Positions 1-12,240 of a stretch of 15,105 bases of DNA are shown in pieces. The stretch's first letter is position 1. Every line of letters starts with the position of its first letter. The position numbers were made by a program, and so were the translations under genes. The stretch is taken from the UHGV virus genome UHGV-0264650. One strand, written 5' to 3'. The notes beneath the pieces were generated by a model that was not told the origin of the DNA, ran no database searches, and saw only the letters and a program-made list of their open reading frames with translations. This stretch comes from a virus.

Positions 1-1262
1 CCTTTGTCACCAAGCCGATCAGCTTCCGATTTCTTCTCTTTTTTCTGTTTTTTCGGCTTGTCTACTGGCTTGTCGAATCCGGTAATCGCTCCGTCATTGG
101 CAGCATTCTGTTCATTTTTCCTTGCTTCTTCTGTAGCCTGGATTGCTGCGGTCAGATCATCCTGTAGTTGCATGACCTTGCCAACGGTCTTCCCGTATTT
201 CTTCTCGTAGTTGCTGTTATATTCGTCGGTTTGCTCTCCTACTACCTCCTTCACCCATTTATAGGCGTCCATTAGTGCCTTGATTGGCGTCACCATTGCG
301 ATGATCTTCTCGGCTACCTCGCCAGCCTTGATTCTGACATCTTCAAACATGTCGATGAATTCGCCACCAGCCGTCTTCAGGGTGTTAAAGCAGGTTTTAG
401 CGAAATCAGCGCCTTCACCTAAATCCTTAACAGCTTTCGTTACAAAATCGATACCAGCAACAACCGTATCGGATACACCGAAAAGATCATCCAATTGCTC
501 AACAAGTCCCATAACCTCGACTTTAAGCTCATTCAGGGCCATGCCGGATGTGCGCGGCAACTGCGCAAACTTCTCGTTTGTTTCCTGCGTAGCCGCCTGG
601 ATTGCGTTAACCATCCTTTCTGCCGTGATCTTACCGTCCAGCATTTCGGCGCGGAATTGGCCCATTGATAACCCCATCTGGCGTGCCATTGTCTGTACGA
701 TGGTCGGGGTGTTTTCTAACAGGCTGTTGAATTCTTCAGCGCGCAACACGCCACCGTCGATAGACTGACGGAATTGACGCATTGAGTTTGACATCTGCTC
801 CGCTGACGCGCCGCCCAACGCCCCCATTTTCTGAATCGTACCTACCAGGTTAAGCAATTGCCCTTCCGTAGCGGAGGTGTTTTTTAGTGAGATAGCCAGG
901 CCTTGCCATAATTCGCCAGTATCTTTCAGGCTCTGCCCCGTCTCCCTGGATATTTCTTTCAGACCATCAAAAACCCGCCCGGCAGATTCCGCGTCGCCTG
1001 TAAGCATTTTGATTTTGACGCGTAGCATTTTGGCCTGCTCTGCCATTTCCATAAACTGTCTAACGGCCTCGGCAGCAATTAGCAGATGGATAACCCTGGT
1101 CAGTGCTTTGATTGATGTTTTCAGTGTGTTTACCTGGCGATCGGCCTGTTTAGCACCGCGCTCTATACGGTCAAAGGCCTGGTCTGCCTGTCGTTGTGCT
1201 ACAAGAAGTTGTCCTGTTTTTGCGTCAACTTCGTAATAAATTGTGCCTACACTGGTAGCCAT
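1..1262 (-). CDS. Tail tape measure protein, N-terminal part (gene continues beyond the left edge of the window)
   Basis: Open minus-strand frame from ATG at 1262 (SD GAGG 7 nt upstream) with no stop to position 1. Translation starts MATSVGTIYYEVDAKTGQLLVAQRQADQAF and contains GGVLRAEEFNSLLENTPTIVQTMARQMGLSMGQFRAEMLDGKITAERMVNAI, which matches the conserved tape-measure N-terminal motif as I recall it. Position after tail tube and chaperone fits. Not in the ORF track because no stop lies in the window. Confidence 0.8.
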   Translation of the reverse strand, partial: MATSVGTIYYEVDAKTGQLLVAQRQADQAFDRIERGAKQADRQVNTLKTSIKALTRVIHLLIAAEAVRQFMEMAEQAKMLRVKIKMLTGDAESAGRVFDGLKEISRETGQSLKDTGELWQGLAISLKNTSATEGQLLNLVGTIQKMGALGGASAEQMSNSMRQFRQSIDGGVLRAEEFNSLLENTPTIVQTMARQMGLSMGQFRAEMLDGKITAERMVNAIQAATQETNEKFAQLPRTSGMALNELKVEVMGLVEQLDDLFGVSDTVVAGIDFVTKAVKDLGEGADFAKTCFNTLKTAGGEFIDMFEDVRIKAGEVAEKIIAMVTPIKALMDAYKWVKEVVGEQTDEYNSNYEKKYGKTVGKVMQLQDDLTAAIQATEEARKNEQNAANDGAITGFDKPVDKPKKQKKEKKSEADRLGDK

Positions 1263-1564: not shown

Positions 1565-1978
1565 ATGAAACGGTTAGCAAAAATGGTGCTTGCTGTGATT
1601 GCTGCACTAGCATTTAACGCTAACGCTAACGAGGCCATAAACATTAACTGTGAAGAAGTGGCAAACCATGTAGCCGCATATCACGACATGATCAAAAAAG
1701 AACCAGCCGCACCCACAATTCTTTTTAAGGCAATTGATAAAAATTTTGAAGGTAAACCAGTTTATGCTCGTTGGTTTAATTATGGCCTTGTAAACGAGGC
1801 TGCTGTAGGCGTAGTCTTTGAAAACAACAGCGAAATAAAAAACAGGATAGCTAACGAGTGTAAAGCAAATAAAGTTGCTTTCGCTGAAAGAATTTTTAAT
1901 GAAGGCGGCGCTGGTGCAAAAAATCACGCAATTGTCGATTTAGGTAACGGTTTTATTGATATTGTTAGAATCAAATAA
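1565..1978 (+). CDS. Moron: secreted/periplasmic protein of unknown function (137 aa) with a cleavable signal peptide
   Basis: Only convincing plus-strand gene. ATG at 1565 preceded by AGGGG SD with 6-nt spacer (the ORF-track start at 1559 is a TTG). N-terminus MKRLAKMVLAVIAALAFNANA-NEA is a typical Sec signal peptide with an AXA cleavage site; the mature part has two Cys. Sits in an AT-rich segment opposite in orientation to the structural operon, behind a ~300-bp AT-rich intergenic region. Confidence 0.6.
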   Translation: MKRLAKMVLAVIAALAFNANANEAININCEEVANHVAAYHDMIKKEPAAPTILFKAIDKNFEGKPVYARWFNYGLVNEAAVGVVFENNSEIKNRIANECKANKVAFAERIFNEGGAGAKNHAIVDLGNGFIDIVRIK

Positions 1979-1993
1979 GACAAACGCCCGGAT

Positions 1994-2671
1994 CTACCGG
2001 ACTTTTTCTTGCTTGCGATTTTCCATTCTTTTTAGCGCCTTTTTAGCGGCCTCCATTTGCTCGTCATAAGCACGTTTATTTATGTGAACATTTGGTCTAC
2101 TTCTTTCATTTCTTTCGTCTGGCGGCGTTTTAGCGCGCACTGCGGCCCTGTATCCGGTCATTGTCATATTCCATGCTTCTGATTCTGACAATCCCAGGTG
2201 AGCAACGGCAGAATAAACAAACTCAAGTACGTCAAATGTCGGCTTGTACTCGCCTTCCTGGATCGCGCCCGTGTCTTCTTCCGGCCCGTCACCAATTAAA
2301 CCGTGGTACATGCAATGTTGCGCCAGCGTGATAACATCACTTGTAGGCATCAGTCCGGGTTTTAGTCTCAATTTACCAGAAGGAGTAAACCTACATTTGC
2401 CCAATAACGGGCCTGTTTCGTCGTCTGAGCAACATTTCAGGATGCGCATTGACGTTTGCACTATCTCACCATAACACCGTGCCATAATGCGATTGCGGAG
2501 GTCTGGATCTGTAGGTAATCGTGAAGGGTATTTGCTGCCGTGGATAAGTGCGAAATATTCGACAAGCTCACTATCGTTGCCGATTTTAGCCATCGCAGCA
2601 AAGCAAGGATTAAACTCATAGCGCTTACCGTTCACCACAGCCGCAAATTGCCCTGTACGAACATGGATCAT
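1994..2671 (-). CDS. Hypothetical protein, possibly a tail assembly chaperone by position (between tail tube and tape measure)
   Basis: ORF-track ORF 1994-2680; the first codon there is GTG, and the ATG at 2671 has an AGGTGA SD 5 nt upstream, so 2671 is the preferred start (MIHVRTGQFAAV...). Function is inferred from synteny only; no recognisable motif. Confidence 0.35.
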   Translation of the reverse strand: MIHVRTGQFAAVVNGKRYEFNPCFAAMAKIGNDSELVEYFALIHGSKYPSRLPTDPDLRNRIMARCYGEIVQTSMRILKCCSDDETGPLLGKCRFTPSGKLRLKPGLMPTSDVITLAQHCMYHGLIGDGPEEDTGAIQEGEYKPTFDVLEFVYSAVAHLGLSESEAWNMTMTGYRAAVRAKTPPDERNERSRPNVHINKRAYDEQMEAAKKALKRMENRKQEKVR

Positions 2672-2683
2672 AGTATTCACCTT

Positions 2684-2708
2684 AAAAGAAAAGGGGCCAA
2701 ATGGCCCC
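2684..2708 (-). terminator. Putative intrinsic terminator/attenuator downstream of the tail tube gene
   Basis: On the minus strand: GGGGCC-ATTT-GGCCCC hairpin (plus 2693-2708) followed directly by TTTTCTTTT (plus 2684-2692). Lies between the tail tube stop (2727) and the next start (2671). Confidence 0.5.
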
Positions 2709-2726: not shown

Positions 2727-3203
2727 TTATGCTGGCGGAACGTCGCCTACCGTTACCTTGCCAGCGCTTTCGCACTCAATAGACCAGGTGGAAACATCAT
2801 CATGCGGATCTTCTTCTTTAAAGGAAGTGCAAAGGAATGGGCCTTCAGTTACGTCTACAGGAGAAACGATCTTCAGCCATACATAAGGTTGTGATCCGGT
2901 GGTTTCACCTGGCGTAATTACGTGGCGTTTCAGCGCTTTCTGATTATGGATTTCTTCAGTGCGGGACACACCGTCGCCGGAGAAAGAAACGGATTTGTAA
3001 GTAACCATTGATTCTTTCGTGTAATCGGCTGATTTATCGGCGGTGGCGTCAGCGGCTTCCCATTCAACGGAAAGTGTTTTACCACGCATCATGCCTAACG
3101 CTTTGTACGCTCCAGCTTCCAGCTTCGCATTTGGACAAGCGATAGCGAAGAATACAGCAACGTCACGGCCTGTAAACGTGCCTTTTTCGCAAGTCTGAGA
3201 CAT
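2727..3203 (-). CDS. Putative major tail (tube) protein
   Basis: 158-aa ORF with SD AGAGGT 8 nt upstream of ATG 3203. Position immediately upstream of chaperone/tape measure, and followed by a terminator-like hairpin as is common for highly expressed tail tube genes. Family not verified. Confidence 0.5.
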   Translation of the reverse strand: MSQTCEKGTFTGRDVAVFFAIACPNAKLEAGAYKALGMMRGKTLSVEWEAADATADKSADYTKESMVTYKSVSFSGDGVSRTEEIHNQKALKRHVITPGETTGSQPYVWLKIVSPVDVTEGPFLCTSFKEEDPHDDVSTWSIECESAGKVTVGDVPPA

Positions 3204-3216
3204 GTTAATTTACCTC

Positions 3217-3603
3217 TTATCTTGATATGATGGTTTGAAAGGCTACGGTAAAAATAAAGCGCCCTTCTCTTGTCTGTATTGCAGGAATAGCGCCAACTGG
3301 CTTCATGTGTGTAATTTTATCAGTTTTATATTCTGTTAACATACTTTGACGGATGGCATCGGCAAGGTCTTCCACCTCACTGATATTTGCATCATTACGC
3401 GCTGAAATAACCAGGATGCGGAAATAATCACGGGTTATTGCTTCCTCACCAGCCGCGCCGCCGTTTTGCTGGATCACGATGTATCTGTCATTATTCGAAT
3501 TACTTCGCTCATTCCAGAAACGGGCCTGCAAAATATAGCCTTCATCGTATCCGTGGGATTGAATCCAATCCCTTATTTCGTCGTAAACTTCGCTGCGTTT
3601 CAT
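3217..3603 (-). CDS. Putative tail completion / tail terminator protein (head-tail joining module)
   Basis: 128-aa ORF; its ATG sits in an ATGA overlap with the stop of the upstream gene (translational coupling); located directly upstream of the tail tube gene. Confidence 0.4.
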   Translation of the reverse strand: MKRSEVYDEIRDWIQSHGYDEGYILQARFWNERSNSNNDRYIVIQQNGGAAGEEAITRDYFRILVISARNDANISEVEDLADAIRQSMLTEYKTDKITHMKPVGAIPAIQTREGRFIFTVAFQTIISR

Positions 3604-5067: not shown

Positions 5068-6132
5068 TCAGGTATTGCTGCCGTAGACCACTCCTGAACG
5101 ACCTTCCATGTCACGGGTGATTTGCAGACCCTCAGCGGACATGATGCGGAAGTTGTAGTTATCAGTCGGCATCATGCGCGGTAACGGTACAACACCAGTA
5201 GTCATACCAACCAGCGGGGTAATTACGCTACGGCTGCGCTGATAAGCAATGAACTCGTTGCCGGACAATGCATAGCTCTGGCGAATCTCACCAACCGGAG
5301 CGAACGGCATAATGACGCTCAGCACGCTACCGACTACAGCACCATTGACGATGTGCGGACGGGCCAGGTTAGCCATGATCTCAGGCGATACCCACATGAC
5401 GTCGTATTTAGCTACGAAGTTGGCGCGAGCCAGCTTGCCGAACTCACCAACGGTGAAGAAGTCAATGATCTTGTCGAAAACCGCAGTAGTCAGGTCGACT
5501 TTTGCGACGGTTTTTAGTTTAAGCTGCTGGGTGCTTTTGTGGTTTTTAATACCCATAGCTTTATGACCATCAACCACGATGCGATCGTTACCATTCAGGT
5601 AGAACTGGACGCGTGCTTTGTTGAATTTTTTCAGTTTCAGGCGCTGGCTATCCAGGGCAAGGTCGATGCCTACAGTATTCAAGCCCTGAGCGAGACGCCA
5701 GTTAACACCGTAACCAGCCGCGAACATCGGGATCGGGTCGCCATCGCTACCGTATTCGGTGTGATCAAAGCCGTGTGGCGCTTGACCATCCATAGACATC
5801 ACAACTTCATCATTGATGTCACCGGATACGTTGTACATTTTCAGCGTTTTACCGACTGGCAGTACGGTTTGTACACCCATCAGGTCGTTTACGATCTCAA
5901 TACCGATTTCTTCGGTGTTCAGTTCGATGATCTGGTTATCAATTTCTTTCCAGAATTCTCTTGCGAAGCCGCCGACGGCGTTACAGGCCAACATTTCAGC
6001 GGTCATGTTTGCTTTGTTTGCTGCAATCATGGCGTTATGCTGATCGTTGAAGATATTGCGTTGCGCCCACAGTTCTTTCCAATGGCTCTGCATCCGGGAG
6101 TTGGCGGCAAGGTTTTCTTTAGTAAAGTACAT
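5068..6132 (-). CDS. Putative major capsid protein
   Basis: 354-aa ORF with SD GGGGA 6 nt upstream of ATG 6132. Follows portal, F-like and scaffold-like genes, and is followed by a strong terminator. Size and position are typical of a major capsid protein; family not verified. Confidence 0.65.
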   Translation of the reverse strand: MYFTKENLAANSRMQSHWKELWAQRNIFNDQHNAMIAANKANMTAEMLACNAVGGFAREFWKEIDNQIIELNTEEIGIEIVNDLMGVQTVLPVGKTLKMYNVSGDINDEVVMSMDGQAPHGFDHTEYGSDGDPIPMFAAGYGVNWRLAQGLNTVGIDLALDSQRLKLKKFNKARVQFYLNGNDRIVVDGHKAMGIKNHKSTQQLKLKTVAKVDLTTAVFDKIIDFFTVGEFGKLARANFVAKYDVMWVSPEIMANLARPHIVNGAVVGSVLSVIMPFAPVGEIRQSYALSGNEFIAYQRSRSVITPLVGMTTGVVPLPRMMPTDNYNFRIMSAEGLQITRDMEGRSGVVYGSNT

Positions 6133-6149
6133 GTTATTCCCCTTTTAAA

Positions 6150-6578
6150 TTAAGCCACGCGAACGCGGATAAAATCTTCCGCTCCCAGGGTTACGTCTTC
6201 CCGGCAGTATGCGATGATCGGATCTGGCGCTGCCTGTTCACTTGGCGCAACAAACAGTTTCACCCCGTCGGCTGCGAGAGCAATAGCTGCACCCTTAACA
6301 TAAGCGGCTGCAGGAACAAGGAGAGCAAACTCTCGGCCCTGTTCCACATAATCAGCAACAACAGTTTCATTTGCAGCGATTGCATCAGTAATGGTTTTGC
6401 CTTCGTGGAATGCCGGGTTGACGATGTACAACTGAGCTGCACCGACATCAGCACTGGTTGCTTTTGCAAACTTACCTCCGTCCAGTTTTACCAGTTCACC
6501 TGGTTTTACTGCAACCTTAGCAGTGTAGGTTTCGGTAATGGATTTACCATCAATATTTACACGACGAAAACGAGACAT
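6150..6578 (-). CDS. Small head protein (142 aa), possibly decoration or scaffold-associated
   Basis: SD GGGGA 5 nt upstream of ATG 6578. Ala/Val-rich protein directly upstream of the capsid gene. Shares the upstream junction motif TAATT(T)AAAAGGGGA with the capsid gene. Confidence 0.5.
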   Translation of the reverse strand: MSRFRRVNIDGKSITETYTAKVAVKPGELVKLDGGKFAKATSADVGAAQLYIVNPAFHEGKTITDAIAANETVVADYVEQGREFALLVPAAAYVKGAAIALAADGVKLFVAPSEQAAPDPIIAYCREDVTLGAEDFIRVRVA

Positions 6579-6594
6579 TGTGATCCCCTTTTAA

Positions 6595-7863
6595 TTAGAA
6601 ATAGGTGTTAAAGTCCGGGACTTCGCCTTTTTTACCTTCGTTTGCTGCGTTGGTAGCCATCGGCGCTGCTTTGCCCAGGGATTTAAACATTGCTTCTAAC
6701 GCTTCACCGCTTAATGCGTTAGCAACAATTTCGCCGTGTACTTTTGCTACTGCGGCGCGTTTTTCTGCTTCTTCTTTATTTGCGTTTGCTGCGATCTCTT
6801 CTTTAATCGCTTTCTGATTGGTCTGTAATTCTTCAACGCTTGCCTGTACTGGTTTTAATGCCTCTGCTACTGCATTAGCGATATTGGCGGATAAGCCTTC
6901 GTTAATTTCTTTTACCAGTTCGGCGCGTTCTTCTTTGGTCAAAGGCATGGGATCGTCCTCCGATTTATTGGCCTTAATTTTTTCATTCAGGGAGAAAAGA
7001 TTAGAAAGGTGTTCAGCGAACTGAGTAAACCAGGATTTACTTTCCTCGTTGGTTGTAAGCTCGCCATTATTGAGAATAATTTTATCAGCCTGTTTTTCGT
7101 AGTTGTATCTTTCCGCACAGTTTTCATTAGTGGCGATCGTCACCTCTCTATCAGTGAAGTCCACCACGTATACATAATCAGCGTCAGGGAACATTTCCCG
7201 CGCGGCAGCGGTTAACTGTTTTTCAAGTGTGCGATAGCTATTTTCTTTCATTGCCACCGCCATTAACGGCTTCGCCTGGTCGGTATTAACCATTAAGCCT
7301 ACGCCCTGTTCCGGCGAAGCGGCTGGCGGCTCATGCAGCAAGATAGCGTCATGGTCGATCGACATGATTTTCACTACATGGTCAGCACCCTGGGCTTTCA
7401 TTTCTTCGGTGGCTGGCATACGCTGGCGATATACAGCGACGGACGACCAGATAGGATCTTTGCTTTCTCCTTTCTCCAGTGCTTTCAGTCGGGCTAATAA
7501 TTCGCGGCCCTGGCTTGAATGGCTGGCGGTTTCCACATCCACCCATTTTTCCACATAAACACGGTTGCCGCGTAACTCAACGTTTCTGTTCCACGCACCA
7601 CAAAAACCCGTGTTTAATCCTTCCGGGCTAAATGCTGAAACAAATTTACCGTCAACGGTTGGATGGCCCAGCGGTGCAAGTGTACCCTCCAGCGACTGAT
7701 AATTAGCGATAATTTCAGCTTCCGGGTAATACTCGCGATTCATAACAATATTAAATGGCAACGTATATGACGGGACAACAATATGTTCGCGCCCGTTATA
7801 CGTTTCCCGGCGAATGGTATTAGCGGTTAATTTGGTATTAACCTGAATTAATTCTTTACTCAC
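6595..7863 (-). CDS. Putative scaffolding / prohead protease-like protein
   Basis: ORF-track ORF 6595-7878 starts at a TTG with no SD; the GTG at 7863 has GGGAG 8 nt upstream and is the preferred start. The C-terminal third is Ala/Glu/Lys-rich and coiled-coil-like (EEIAANANKEEAEKRAAVAKVHGEIVANALSGEALEAMFK), typical of scaffolding proteins. Position between the F-like gene and the capsid gene. Confidence 0.5.
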   Translation of the reverse strand: MSKELIQVNTKLTANTIRRETYNGREHIVVPSYTLPFNIVMNREYYPEAEIIANYQSLEGTLAPLGHPTVDGKFVSAFSPEGLNTGFCGAWNRNVELRGNRVYVEKWVDVETASHSSQGRELLARLKALEKGESKDPIWSSVAVYRQRMPATEEMKAQGADHVVKIMSIDHDAILLHEPPAASPEQGVGLMVNTDQAKPLMAVAMKENSYRTLEKQLTAAAREMFPDADYVYVVDFTDREVTIATNENCAERYNYEKQADKIILNNGELTTNEESKSWFTQFAEHLSNLFSLNEKIKANKSEDDPMPLTKEERAELVKEINEGLSANIANAVAEALKPVQASVEELQTNQKAIKEEIAANANKEEAEKRAAVAKVHGEIVANALSGEALEAMFKSLGKAAPMATNAANEGKKGEVPDFNTYF

Positions 7864-7868
7864 GATTT

Positions 7869-8813
7869 TTACTCCCAATCTTCGCCATATTTAGAGTGCG
7901 CAACCTTATAGTTTTCTTGCGCCCGATCTAATATTCGTTCGTTTAATATGTTACCGTCTTCGTCAACTAATACGGTAATCGTGCTACATTTGCAGTTAAT
8001 AGAATTTGGGGATCTGCTCCACCATTCGCGCTGCTCATCTATGGTGTATGTTTTCCCGTGCCGCTGCGCGTGCGATAGCCTGGTAGTCGGTGACAATGCC
8101 GAAATGTGCATTTGCATAGTGCGCAGATTAAATTCTTCTGTCGCCGCTTCTGCCTCATCCATACGCGCTGTGCGTAACGCTGTGCATATTTCAGTTCGAG
8201 CAATACGTTTGCATCTGTATAGCGGTAATTGCGTCTCCTGATTCAATGTGCGCGCTATTTCCAGTGGGTTTAAACCACGGGCCATACCTTCAGTTAATCG
8301 CCGGGCCATATCCTTTTTGATCTGTGCTGTCAGCCCGCGCATTTCCTCAAATACACGGGTACGGACCAGGGCAAGGCGCGTGCGGTAAGTCGTGCTGGAT
8401 AGCACGGCAGACACATCAGGATAGGCGCTTGAGTACGTGATAGACTGGTTAGCGAGGTTGGCATATTCCTGTGCCGTGCCGCGCTGATAAGCCACCTTCA
8501 CGTAATTCTGCCAAAACCAAAAACTTTCCGGGTCGGTTAGCTCGAATATCTCATCAATCATGTCGCTGGCGTCTTCCAGCAAGTCATGTAATTCGTCGAT
8601 GTAGATCTGGAAGGTGTATTTTTTATTAACAGCCAGGCTATATTGCATTCTGTCCAGTATGGCGATATATGGATCGGCAACTTTCTTCAGGCAGACTTTA
8701 AAACGCTTGATAGCACCAGACCTTAACTTCCCTGTCATGGTCGGGTCTTCGGTGTTAGATGGCATTATCGCGGCTGGAGGTATTCGCCTGATTATTTTCT
8801 TCACCTTCATCAT
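7869..8813 (-). CDS. Head morphogenesis protein, Mu F-like / SPP1 gp7-like minor capsid protein
   Basis: Open frame 7869-8819 (316 aa). Position immediately downstream of the portal gene is characteristic, and the central stretch RIARTEICTALRTARMDE fits this family as I recall it. Start is ambiguous: the ATG at 8813 has GAAGAGG 6 nt upstream and overlaps the portal 3' end by 59 nt. Confidence 0.65.
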   Translation of the reverse strand: MMKVKKIIRRIPPAAIMPSNTEDPTMTGKLRSGAIKRFKVCLKKVADPYIAILDRMQYSLAVNKKYTFQIYIDELHDLLEDASDMIDEIFELTDPESFWFWQNYVKVAYQRGTAQEYANLANQSITYSSAYPDVSAVLSSTTYRTRLALVRTRVFEEMRGLTAQIKKDMARRLTEGMARGLNPLEIARTLNQETQLPLYRCKRIARTEICTALRTARMDEAEAATEEFNLRTMQMHISALSPTTRLSHAQRHGKTYTIDEQREWWSRSPNSINCKCSTITVLVDEDGNILNERILDRAQENYKVAHSKYGEDWE

Positions 8814-10125
8814 CGTCATCCTCTTCCGTTTCTACTTCACTGGCTGGGCCATCGTATCCGGCAGCCTCGCGGATCTCATCGCCGCTAAATATTTCTTCAC
8901 CAGTAGCCAAACAAGCCTGATTGATTTGCGCCATCTTGTCTGCGGCTTCCAGTAGCTCTGCTTTGGTCATGGCGTTAAGGTCGTCCCATAGCACTGATAC
9001 ATCTACTGGCATACTGATAAGGCGTAGATCTGCCATCTTGCGGAACAGATCTTCAATCTCGCCACCGATTTCCTCCCTGCGGGTCATGCAGCGGCTGTTG
9101 AAGTAACGCAGGTCTTCTGTTGATGCGCGTTCTCCCTGCTGGTTCCCAACCAAGATGCGGGTTGGAATATCAACACCAGCGGCGGCGGTTTGCAGGTTTA
9201 CGTCATAGGTTGATGACGGGTCAGATACGGCAGTAACCAGCGGGCTTACTGTCGCACCCTGTAACGCCATCATTACGTCATTACCCTTATTCATTTCAGC
9301 CGCAGCCTCATTGAATCTTTCGCGTAACTCTGTAACGTCGCAATCGTATGTTGCAGCCAGGGAGCGGAAGTCAATCTCTTTATCGAACGAAATGGCAAGC
9401 TGACGCGCTGCGTTTTTCAGGAATGATTCACCACTACCGCCTTCCACTTTTTCCAGTGATACGAATGCGTTGTAGGAAGGTTCAAGGAAAGCGATGACAT
9501 CATCAGAATAGTCGCCAAAGATAAATATGCGGTCAGGGTGGATCTTTCTGGCAATGGTCTTACTGTTAATGCGTTCTTTGTATTCCCACCACGTTGGCAG
9601 GCCATAGTTTTCATTATCCGGGTTTTCTTCGAAGTCCTTCGGTGTAAGAGCGCCAGCCCACACAGGGGTAAATTTTGCAATGCCTACGCCTTTTGTCACT
9701 GGCTGATCCCACGGCTTGTTATCTCTGATATGAATTAACAGACCAGAGTAACGACCAATGAGGCGGCGGCGATCACATTCAGCAACAGTGCGCCAAAATC
9801 TGTTGTTAAATTTCTTCTTGATTTCTCTTTCCCACGGCGTTTCCTTTTTCGCTTTCTCGTCTTCAGTTCCTTCAATCATCTTTGGCTTGGTGCGCCAGCA
9901 AGTCGTAACAATCTTTTCTACAGCACCGTGAGCGATGCCGCCGCGTCTGTACAGTTTGTATAGATCGTGATACGTGATCTCTTCTTTGAATCCGTATTCG
10001 CTCCACGCAGCATCACGTTTGGCATCTATCCCCATAGTGAACGGATGTGCCGCTGCATAGCGGGCAAAGGCCGCCTGGCGTTGTGACAAGGCAGCATTAA
10101 CCGCCAATTCTAAATTGGATGGCAT
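8755..10125 (-). CDS. Portal protein
   Basis: ORF-track ORF 8755-10146; the ATG at 10125 has an AGGAGT SD 7 nt upstream, the 10146 ATG has none. 456-aa product with an acidic C-terminal tail (ETEEDDDDEGEE). Position between large terminase and the F-like gene. Family not verified. Confidence 0.7.
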   Translation of the reverse strand: MPSNLELAVNAALSQRQAAFARYAAAHPFTMGIDAKRDAAWSEYGFKEEITYHDLYKLYRRGGIAHGAVEKIVTTCWRTKPKMIEGTEDEKAKKETPWEREIKKKFNNRFWRTVAECDRRRLIGRYSGLLIHIRDNKPWDQPVTKGVGIAKFTPVWAGALTPKDFEENPDNENYGLPTWWEYKERINSKTIARKIHPDRIFIFGDYSDDVIAFLEPSYNAFVSLEKVEGGSGESFLKNAARQLAISFDKEIDFRSLAATYDCDVTELRERFNEAAAEMNKGNDVMMALQGATVSPLVTAVSDPSSTYDVNLQTAAAGVDIPTRILVGNQQGERASTEDLRYFNSRCMTRREEIGGEIEDLFRKMADLRLISMPVDVSVLWDDLNAMTKAELLEAADKMAQINQACLATGEEIFSGDEIREAAGYDGPASEVETEEDDDDEGEENNQANTSSRDNAI

Positions 10126-10236
10126 AATGTTTACTCCTGAATACATGTTTACGCGTTGCTACGCGAAAAATAGAAAAACTTGTGGGGGATTGTGAGACAG
10201 ATTTTATGTAGCCAATTGAGAATTATTCTTGTTCAT

Positions 10237-10273: not shown

Positions 10274-11752
10274 TTAAAATCCGCGCAGGCGTTTAGGTAA
10301 CATAAGACCCATCGCCTGTGGTTGGCTTAATTCAGTGATCCCCCATACCATCGCATCCATACGGTCAGGGGATTTTTTAGCGGTAGCTGGCACATATTCC
10401 ATCATTTGATTTTCCAGCGTGTATAGCTCACCAGTGTGTGCCACCCTTCCTTGTGCATACAGTGCCGATATTGGTTCAGCGCGGGCGAATTTACCTTTAC
10501 TTGCGTGCACCTTAACAATGCGGCCTTTGAATCCGGCATTGCGTAGTGTGGCCTCTGCCATATCACCACCCTGGTTGGTTTCGATAACCATCGCGTCAGC
10601 TTCATGGATGTTGTAGGCGTTCATTGATGCCTGCGCCCAGTCGTTAGGTGACATACGGCCTGAATAGTCGCCATCAACAGAATACTGAGCATTCTTGCCA
10701 CCACCATAAGCGGAACATGCCATGATCCCCGTTTCGTCCGACTCATCAGATGATGTTGTCGCCGGGTCAATGGCTATCACAGTGCGGATTTTCTCCTGCG
10801 TTATCTGCATTCGGTGTGCTGCGGTTATCATTGCTTCAGTCCACAATGCGCCTTCTTCGTCGAATTTACGCGGGCGCTGCATGTACTGGGCTTCAAATGA
10901 CCGTCTGTGCGCCTTCAGTCCGGCTTCATGGGTGTCATTGTGTTTTTTAGGCCATAGCCAGCCGTCCGGCAGGTTGTGAGCGATAGGAATGGCGAACTCG
11001 TTTTCAGGGTACAGATCCCAATAATCCAGGCTGTTGTCGATCTTCACTGGCAGGTTAAGGTGATACCACTTTTCACCACTGCCGCCGCGTAACAGGTAGC
11101 CGGACAAATCATCGTAGTGGATGCGCTGCATGATGACGATAACAGGCGTTGTTTGCACTGCCAGACGCGATGCAAGCGTATCGTTATAGTTGGTGTTCAC
11201 CTGCTTTCTCACCACGTCAGAGTAAGCGTCAGCGGGTTTTAATGGGTCGTCGATGATTAACGCGCCATTAAATCCTGATTCCATGTACCCCGCACGGAAC
11301 CCGGTCACCTGACCAAGTGATGACGTTGCATACACGCCGCCGCCGTATTCGGTCCACCACATCGATTTTGAGTTGGCATCGTTGCGGATCTTCATGGGCC
11401 ACATTGCCTGATAGTCAGGCGTACAGATCATGTTTCTTACAGTCGAGGAGTTGAGTAGCGCCAGGTTGTTGGAATAGGAAACGTGAAGGAATCTTGTGCG
11501 GGGATTTATTGCGAGGGACCGCGCCATCATATTGATAGTCGCGATCATGGTTTTGCCGTACCCTGGGGGAATGTTAATGATGAGTCGGGTTATCTCACCA
11601 TTAATAACGCGTTGCAGTGCATCACGGATGGCTAAATGATGGCCTGAGATTAACATCTTCGTTCCGTTCGCTTGTTTATAGAAGTAGCGATTGAAAAACA
11701 GGCCATCGTTTTCACATTTGGACTGAATAACTCGTTCTTTGATTGTCAACAT
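10274..11752 (-). CDS. terL: Terminase large subunit
   Basis: ORF-track ORF 10274-11758 starts at GTG; the ATG at 11752 has GAGGTG 5 nt upstream and lies 2 nt after the TerS stop. Contains a Walker A-like P-loop (PPGYGKT), a Walker B-like hydrophobic stretch ending in acidic residues (GALIIDDP), and a C-terminal region with conserved acidic residues (VIAIDPATTSSDESDETG) consistent with the nuclease domain. Confidence 0.85.
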   Translation of the reverse strand: MLTIKERVIQSKCENDGLFFNRYFYKQANGTKMLISGHHLAIRDALQRVINGEITRLIINIPPGYGKTMIATINMMARSLAINPRTRFLHVSYSNNLALLNSSTVRNMICTPDYQAMWPMKIRNDANSKSMWWTEYGGGVYATSSLGQVTGFRAGYMESGFNGALIIDDPLKPADAYSDVVRKQVNTNYNDTLASRLAVQTTPVIVIMQRIHYDDLSGYLLRGGSGEKWYHLNLPVKIDNSLDYWDLYPENEFAIPIAHNLPDGWLWPKKHNDTHEAGLKAHRRSFEAQYMQRPRKFDEEGALWTEAMITAAHRMQITQEKIRTVIAIDPATTSSDESDETGIMACSAYGGGKNAQYSVDGDYSGRMSPNDWAQASMNAYNIHEADAMVIETNQGGDMAEATLRNAGFKGRIVKVHASKGKFARAEPISALYAQGRVAHTGELYTLENQMMEYVPATAKKSPDRMDAMVWGITELSQPQAMGLMLPKRLRGF

Positions 11753-11754
11753 AA

Positions 11755-12240
11755 TCACACCTCATCTTCAACTTCCTGGACGATGCGGGCGATCTCTTCT
11801 TTCGTTACTTCAACCCGGACGGGTGCTTCCTCCCTGTTGCCGACGATCTCCTGTGTGACGCGTTCACCATATTTACGCGGTTGCAGTTTTGCCAGTAACC
11901 ACTTGCGCGTTTCAATCATCAGTTGATGGCGGCGGCATTCATCTTTATCAATGTTCTCCGCTGCATCGGCTATATCTATGATTTCATCAGCCAATACCTC
12001 AAACCCTATTTCCTTCGCGCGTATGTACATGTCCGAAAACTCCGGAACATCTCTGAACCATTTAAGGATTGTCGAACGCGTTGGCATACCTGGCATCTTC
12101 GAGATCTTATTAATACTCTTACCGTCCGCCACCAGCTCACAGATCTCTAATGCCTTTTCTTCGGTATAACCATGCGGACGGCCCACCCTTTTTGCGGCTG
12201 GCTTTTTATCGTCAGCCTTCGCCTTTTTCGTGCGGGCCAT
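11755..12240 (-). CDS. terS: Putative terminase small subunit
   Basis: 161-aa ORF directly upstream of and translationally coupled to TerL. Basic N-terminus (MARTKKAKADDKKPAAKRVGRP) followed by a helix-turn-helix-like segment, acidic C-terminus. SD GAGGTG 4 nt upstream of ATG 12240. Confidence 0.7.
   Translation of the reverse strand: MARTKKAKADDKKPAAKRVGRPHGYTEEKALEICELVADGKSINKISKMPGMPTRSTILKWFRDVPEFSDMYIRAKEIGFEVLADEIIDIADAAENIDKDECRRHQLMIETRKWLLAKLQPRKYGERVTQEIVGNREEAPVRVEVTKEEIARIVQEVEDEV

Follow-up and report, generated by a model that had tools for sequence, protein, structure and literature searches.

In bacteriophage lambda, the tail assembly chaperones gpG and gpGT are synthesized at a G:GT ratio of about 30:1 through a programmed -1 frameshift, and a large excess of G has been reported to be crucial (PMC5009743). 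The G moiety, whether as gpG or within gpGT, binds the tape measure protein, while the T part of the longer product binds and recruits the major tail protein, and the two chaperones leave the finished tail (PMC5009743). Phages without an annotated chaperone frameshift are already known (PMC10885494; RcZahn in PMC8601537) and, thus, a missing frameshift alone is unsurprising.

The window, i.e., the whole stretch of 15,105 nucleotides analyzed here from the virus genome UHGV-0264650, is most closely related to phage MagusPhagus (86% DNA identity) and to the mEp010/013/021/044/515/554 group. The mEp phages have been described as Nus-dependent, non-lambdoid "mEpimmI" coliphages (PMC11893012). Related prophages were found in 29 of 5,426 complete E. 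coli genomes. According to the ORF map and the profile searches, the morphogenesis genes of the window all lie on the minus strand, and the features of the locus are as follows:

10274-11758, minus strand: terminase
8755-10146, minus strand: portal
5068-6132, minus strand: capsid protein
3217-3603, minus strand: tail terminator (PF23842)
2727-3203, minus strand: major tail (tube) protein, 158 aa (Pfam Phage_tail_2, E 2.3e-8; PHROG 853 major tail protein, E 1.2e-45)
2693-2708, minus strand: terminator-like hairpin GGGGCCATTTGGCCCC, a perfect GC hairpin of 6 bp with a T-run behind it, separating the major tail gene from the DUF6246 gene
1994-2671, minus strand: DUF6246 gene, 225 aa, the sole gene in the tail-assembly-chaperone slot (Pfam PF19759, E 3.4e-54)
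1986-2002, minus strand: hairpin whose loop contains UAG, the stop codon of the DUF6246 gene, with a weak T-rich tail behind it (fold z-score -1.9, weak)
1565-1978, plus strand (ATG at 1565): cargo ("moron") gene for a 137-aa protein that has a cleavable signal peptide MKRLAKMVLAVIAALAFNANA
1-1262, minus strand: tape measure protein, of which the N-terminal 420 aa are present as the gene runs off the window (Pfam TMP_3, E 2.6e-50; PHROG 1538)

The DUF6246 gene occupies the position after the major tail gene (2727-3203) and before the start of the tape measure gene (1262), on the same strand as both. Variable cargo aside, it has this interval to itself, as have its homologues in ES18, the mEp phages, phi297, Skate, and Klebsiella F14. 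Its start codon is the ATG at 2671, preceded at a distance of 6 nt by the Shine-Dalgarno sequence AAGGTG, and its stop codon lies at 1994-1996. The GTG at 2680, which the ORF finder took as the start, falls within this Shine-Dalgarno sequence. The 225-aa product matches Pfam DUF6246 (PF19759) with 183.9 bits against a cut-off of 27 bits, and it matches PHROG 791 from end to end, residues 2-223 corresponding to profile positions 3-226 of 227 (E 8.8e-68). Pfam and PHROG searches of the window ORFs revealed no second chaperone candidate between the capsid and tape measure genes, the remaining ORFs of this interval being assigned to the tail terminator, to tail completion/Neck1 families, or to PHROGs of unknown function.

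The DUF6246 family comprises 328 phage records and, at 50% identity, 300 clusters of proteins mostly of 190-235 aa. Its DUF6246/PHROG 791 members include gene 17 of ES18, SPN3UB, the Jersey-like and Skate-like Salmonella phages, the phi297/D3-like Pseudomonas phages, and phages of Klebsiella and Vibrio. Both families are listed with function unknown in the Pfam and PHROGs copies searched, and NCBIfam holds no model for the 225-aa protein. Among 60 sampled phage records, the homologues are labelled as hypothetical, DUF6246, "tail protein" or "glycoprotein", and in none of the 60 as a chaperone. The literature search returned nothing on the function of DUF6246, the sole paper that mentions it dealing with an unrelated topic, and no description of a T-type domain fused in frame as in this family.

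An AlphaFold2 model of the 225-aa protein, built on a 93-sequence alignment, reaches a pLDDT of 92.3 and predicts an alpha/beta domain (residues 1-127), a linker, a helical region (148-190), and a long helix (199-224). Model and profile comparisons together divide the protein into the following parts:

2291-2671, minus strand: N-terminal alpha/beta domain, residues 1-127 (AlphaFold2 model of the domain alone, pLDDT 95.5)
2237-2290, minus strand: acidic, poorly conserved linker, residues 128-145 (high amino-acid diversity; hhalign GT alignment)
2045-2257, minus strand: T-like domain, residues 139-209, with the motif AHLGLSESEAWNMTMT ... P..YD..M (hhalign, Phage_TAC_6)
2000-2077, minus strand: long charged C-terminal helix, residues 199-224 (AlphaFold2 secondary structure)

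The pLDDT of the linker falls to 73 at residues 131-140, and the YD..M..A motif of the C-terminal helix is invariant in alignment A1. When the model was compared with BFVD by Foldseek, the first match outside the family was the Rhodobacter phage RcapNL protein H6WBL9 (E 2e-3, probability 1.0), which was taken to be RcapNL gp16 since both are 190 aa long, and at least eight annotated tail assembly chaperones appeared among the weak matches.

In RcapNL, gp16 is encoded in the interval that separates the tape measure genes from the major tail gene, and the N-terminal part of the protein is Phage_TAC_11. Its gene is annotated as one in-frame ORF of 190 aa (L088, 10354-10926), and all its homologues have just 117-157 aa and cover about 60% of gp16. 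In the contigs of these relatives, a Phage_tail_2 major tail gene is followed first by the Phage_TAC_11 gene, then by a small ORF that overlaps in a different frame, and finally by the tape measure gene. All 15 relatives contain A AAA AAA/G near codon 110-118, from which an extension of approximately 65-80 aa continues in the -1 frame, and a -1 shift at this A-run recreates a protein of 187-200 aa collinear with RcapNL gp16. The small out-of-frame ORF between the Phage_TAC_11 and tape measure genes of one contig (L093) scores as Phage_TAC_6 (PF09550), a family also found in three separately called T ORF products. The out-of-frame ORF and the read-through reconstruction thus identify Phage_TAC_6 as the T part of the canonical G/GT pair of the RcapNL lineage. 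RcapNL gene 16 itself stands apart as a single ORF from the 15 relatives (within L089-L105), in which the G ORF and the -1 T part are joined at an A7-A9 run, and is either naturally fused in frame or the product of an error in sequencing or annotating the homopolymer.

The DUF6246 family resembles this T part in several comparisons. Phage_TAC_6 matches 20 of the 93 DUF6246 members (best E 2.1e-5), and on the window protein it aligns with residues 155-186 at E 0.19 and 12.6 bits, below the Pfam gathering cut-off of 23.4. In profile-profile alignments with hhalign, the signal strengthens as the T profile deepens: four reconstructed GT proteins gave E 6.6e-4, 13 gave E 2.8e-5 (74% probability, collinear across 167 columns), the T part alone of 13 sequences gave E 3.6e-5, and a 45-sequence T profile gave E 2.7e-6 with residues 139-209 aligned to T positions 7-75. 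The latter probability (88.5%) is the best obtained between DUF6246 and T and, at 88%, is not above 95%. As a control, none of 70 column-shuffled T alignments reached the score of 32.1 observed with the 13-sequence T profile; the shuffled scores had a mean of 11.6, an SD of 3.2, and a maximum of 25.3, which places the observed value at a z of about 6. In the alignment with the 13 proteins, the slippery KKK of canonical GT falls opposite the DUF6246 linker. Sequence comparison makes a moderately strong but not conclusive case for homology between residues about 139-209 and the T extension that canonical G/GT chaperone genes encode in the -1 frame.

The N-terminal domain behaves differently in the same searches. 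A 48-sequence G-only profile (PF11836, Phage_TAC_11, GTA-gp10) aligned with DUF6246 at E 0.095 and in the wrong region, the G part of the GT alignment gave E 0.042, and Phage_TAC_11 (PF11836) produced weak matches in only four of the 93 members (best E 0.023). The interpretation of the whole 225-aa protein as an RcapNL-type G+T fusion was dropped for want of a match to the G-only PF11836 profile, and homology is claimed for the C-terminal domain alone, since T profiles match and G profiles do not. Foldseek searches of the PDB with the full and the N-domain models returned nothing at E <= 0.001, and chaperones are absent among the top 50 listed matches of either model; matches to uS11 at E 0.06 were regarded as chance, and a search of the PDB with the sequence profile gave nothing significant. 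The N-terminal domain is a different fold, so far without a match. Since it shows no similarity to G families or solved structures, its putative role as the tape-measure-binding, G-equivalent part of the protein is drawn from position only.

It appears rather likely, though well short of certain, that the 225-aa protein is, in this E. coli phage or prophage of the mEpimmI type, a frameshift-free, single-ORF tail assembly chaperone whose N-terminal domain coats the tape measure protein and whose C-terminal domain is T-homologous. The lineage-specific N-terminal domain (1-127) would hold the tape measure protein and coat it in the manner of lambda gpG, and the C-terminal domain would recruit a tube protein of the Phage_tail_2 type. 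The chaperone activity, the binding partners, and the handling of stoichiometry are what we infer for this protein. A minor structural or regulatory tail protein that shares the major-tail-binding module, with the chaperone absent or supplied by another gene, would also suit an N-terminal domain unlike any known chaperone, and it would agree with the "tail protein" and "glycoprotein" labels of some records. However, this explanation is unlikely, as no other ORF from the capsid to the tape measure gene matches a chaperone family, and the slot and orientation, like the tight coupling with the tape measure gene seen in distant members, are those of chaperones. A weak point in the same direction is provided by the mEp021 GenBank record, which flags several neighbours of the DUF6246 homologue as virion structural proteins and not the homologue itself.

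A chaperone encoded by a single ORF raises the question of a second reading frame. Stop-to-stop maps of the three minus-strand frames across the DUF6246 gene showed open stretches of only 30-33 codons in the -1 frame, none of them close to the 3' end, and a +1 frame that is open for 35 codons across the stop, reaching 22-23 codons beyond it. An in-frame X XXY YYZ heptamer is missing from the gene of the window, and its homopolymer runs do not exceed A5. Moreover, 84 related loci were fetched, and their distinct genes (45 mEpimmI-type and 21 ES18-type) were scanned for recoding signals. No slippery heptamer is conserved in either set, the commonest one occurring in four sequences, and neither a heptamer nor a homopolymer is conserved in the linker. 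As a positive control, the same scan recovered the conserved A AAA AAA/G in each of the 15 relatives of RcapNL gp16 with a canonical G/GT pair. Canonical G/GT pairs are recognized by an overlapping -1 (rarely +1) ORF that adds about 60-150 aa, and no conserved ORF of this kind exists in the 66 distinct genes, in which the open stretches across the stop amount to 2-56 aa in the +1 frame and 3-175 aa in the -1 frame. The sequence-only reading had described a single 225-aa ORF in the chaperone position with no G/GT pair, overlapping frame or slippery site; the minus-strand ORF, the frame maps, and the gene order agree with the former observation, and the negative heptamer searches of this gene and its 66 distinct homologues, together with the control, extend the latter to the family.

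A -1-frame ORF located 3' of the DUF6246 gene in four loci (L054, L075, L078, and L081) was considered as a T extension and rejected, as it lies in the +1 frame in the near-identical L080. It also has its own start codon and a C-terminal transmembrane helix, which identify it as cargo. A synonymous-site scan of the codon alignment found low diversity in the last 60 codons of the mEpimmI group (group A). Such dips were discarded as an embedded signal and the scan was judged uninformative, since they coincide with high amino-acid divergence and are missing in the ES18-like group, which suggests mosaic alleles rather than an embedded signal.

Non-canonical recoding could nevertheless persist, e.g., as +1 shifting close to the 3' end, or as a shift or slippage in the linker that ends early and yields a G-only product. 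The GenBank record of ES18 notes a "possible +1 frameshift at 3' end of gene" for the homologous gene 17, and this possibility would also accommodate the open +1 frame of the window, the low synonymous diversity of group A, and the two products at a set ratio required by lambda. However, the extensions past the stop change in length and sequence with the cargo that follows, the tape measure gene of phi297, Skate, and F14 begins at the stop codon, where an extension could not be accommodated, conserved heptamers and homopolymers are lacking both in the linker and in the rest of the gene, and the synonymous dip, absent in the ES18-like group, tracks amino-acid divergence. Thus, hidden recoding is considered improbable, and the single-ORF chaperone is retained as the preferred reading.

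The region downstream of the gene is highly variable. In 80 related loci, the filler between the DUF6246 gene and the tape measure gene measures 567-2198 bp and exists in 62 distinct versions, and every close relative carries filler at this site. Their products are proteins with signal peptides, lipobox-bearing lipoproteins, and small membrane proteins; fillers of the mEpimmI group run antisense to the DUF6246 gene, and those of the ES18-like group share its strand. The cargo gene of the window (1565-1978) belongs to no Pfam, PHROG or NCBIfam family, occurs in about 20 of the 84 fetched loci, and is replaced elsewhere by other genes. The DUF6246 gene itself remains unchanged across differing fillers, and the C-terminal motifs AHLG.SE.EAW.MTMT, K.P, and YD..M..A are the same throughout, from prophages of E. 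coli as far as ES18 of Salmonella. Cargo is inserted after the DUF6246 gene in ES18 and the mEp phages, and upstream of it, between the major tail and DUF6246 genes, in Skate and Klebsiella F14. The DUF6246 ORF of phi297, Skate, and F14 is again single and abuts the tape measure gene directly, with no insert between them. The gene order of Pseudomonas phi297 is major tail, DUF6246 (205 aa), and tape measure, the latter two with overlapping stop and start codons. Since the C-terminus is kept across fillers and the insert-free members have the same organization, one ORF is the ancestral state of the DUF6246 family.

Two explanations had been offered for the lone ORF in the sequence-only reading, namely an unconventional chaperone or a frameshift extension disrupted by the moron. 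The former is supported by a full-length DUF6246/PHROG 791 protein that is the sole gene in its slot and carries a T-like domain in frame in its C-terminal third, whereas the latter fails, a single ORF being present without the insert too, as the suggested comparison with relatives lacking it (phi297, Skate, and F14) makes clear. A truncated and possibly defective chaperone, cut off from an ancestral extension by the moron, has only the gene order in its favour, with a foreign opposite-strand gene right after the ORF, and can practically be dismissed, given the end-to-end PHROG 791 match, the C-terminal motif kept from E. coli phages to ES18, the same gene beside 62 different fillers and where filler is absent, and the viable isolates mEp021, mEp013, and others.

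Several further observations concern the cargo site. A small plus-strand ORF of 27 aa (1414-1497, MRNVNYRPNEYERYANLIEEMLKTLKK, with an alternative GTG start at 1396) adjoins the start of the oppositely oriented tape measure gene; it is kept upstream of at least four different cargo genes and was found in 17 of 49 loci by a strict pattern. In nine loci (L008, L014-L019, L025, and L050; gene 6001-6699), a 232-aa DUF6246 allele, in which the last two residues are replaced and a short extension is added, is linked to one particular lipoprotein cargo, which points to recombination breakpoints at the extreme 3' end of the gene. In the ES18-like loci (L053-L084), approximately 40 nt just 3' of the DUF6246 stop are conserved whatever cargo follows (frame 0 ...LLLRSKNQTCPLR), and this stretch may be a recombination or terminator element that bounds the cargo site. 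Moreover, the hairpin at 1986-2002 overlaps a terminator annotated in relatives for the convergent cargo gene. Taken as a whole, both borders of the DUF6246 gene are hotspots for phage host-conversion cargo.

In the proposed single-ORF chaperone system, the DUF6246 gene would yield only one product and every chaperone molecule would carry the T-like domain, so any dosage control must come from elsewhere. A candidate is the attenuating terminator just upstream of the gene. The records of mEp013, mEp021, and ES18 have a terminator annotated in the corresponding interval, separating the DUF6246 gene from the major tail gene, and the strong hairpin at 2693-2708 is probably an attenuator that lowers chaperone and tape measure expression in comparison with that of the tube protein. 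In this manner, it may keep chaperone and tape measure protein low and at matched levels.

What is new here is the recognition that the DUF6246 family carries a T-type domain in frame on a novel N-terminal domain. On a broader and more tentative view, which we would place slightly under an even chance, DUF6246 constitutes a large siphovirus chaperone class (at least 328 phage genomes, including ES18, Jersey/Skate-like, D3/phi297-like, and mEpimmI phages) that has abandoned the otherwise near-universal G/GT frameshift, with the T-type domain hard-wired on the novel N-terminal domain and a GT-only mode of assembly. If true, the G:GT ratio thought to be crucial in lambda would not be a general requirement, and dosage would be set otherwise, e.g., by the upstream attenuating terminator. 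DUF6246 would also gain a likely and testable function, being located in the chaperone slot of hundreds of sequenced phages, among them the well-studied ES18, D3/phi297-like, and Jersey-like Salmonella phages and a gut-prevalent group of E. coli prophages. Annotators who seek the "missing" frameshift at DUF6246 loci will find none. In turn, the family offers a natural experiment on whether the G:GT frameshift ratio is needed for tail-length determination.

Three known systems place the DUF6246 protein of the window in context. Gene 17 of ES18 and the other DUF6246/PHROG 791 relatives share 27-40% identity with it across the full length and occupy the same slot, with no difference in kind. The RcapNL gp16 relatives and the GTA-type g10/g10.1 pairs (Phage_TAC_11 plus Phage_TAC_6) appear to share with it a homologous T part, and RcapNL gp16 provides an overall Foldseek match; moreover, both the RcapNL-like phages and the window phage have a major tail protein of the Phage_tail_2 family. 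However, the G part of these pairs (PF11836) gives no profile match to the DUF6246 N-terminal domain, and the RcapNL relatives reach T by a -1 shift in 15 of 15 cases, whereas the DUF6246 protein carries the T-like domain in frame. Finally, lambda gpG/gpGT are encoded in the same slot, between the major tail and tape measure genes, and gpGT and the DUF6246 protein both consist of an N-terminal part followed by a C-terminal T-type part. Unlike the lambda pair, the DUF6246 gene has a single product, with no second frame and no slippery site, and a system operating with such a GT-only protein would violate the need for an excess of G reported for lambda.
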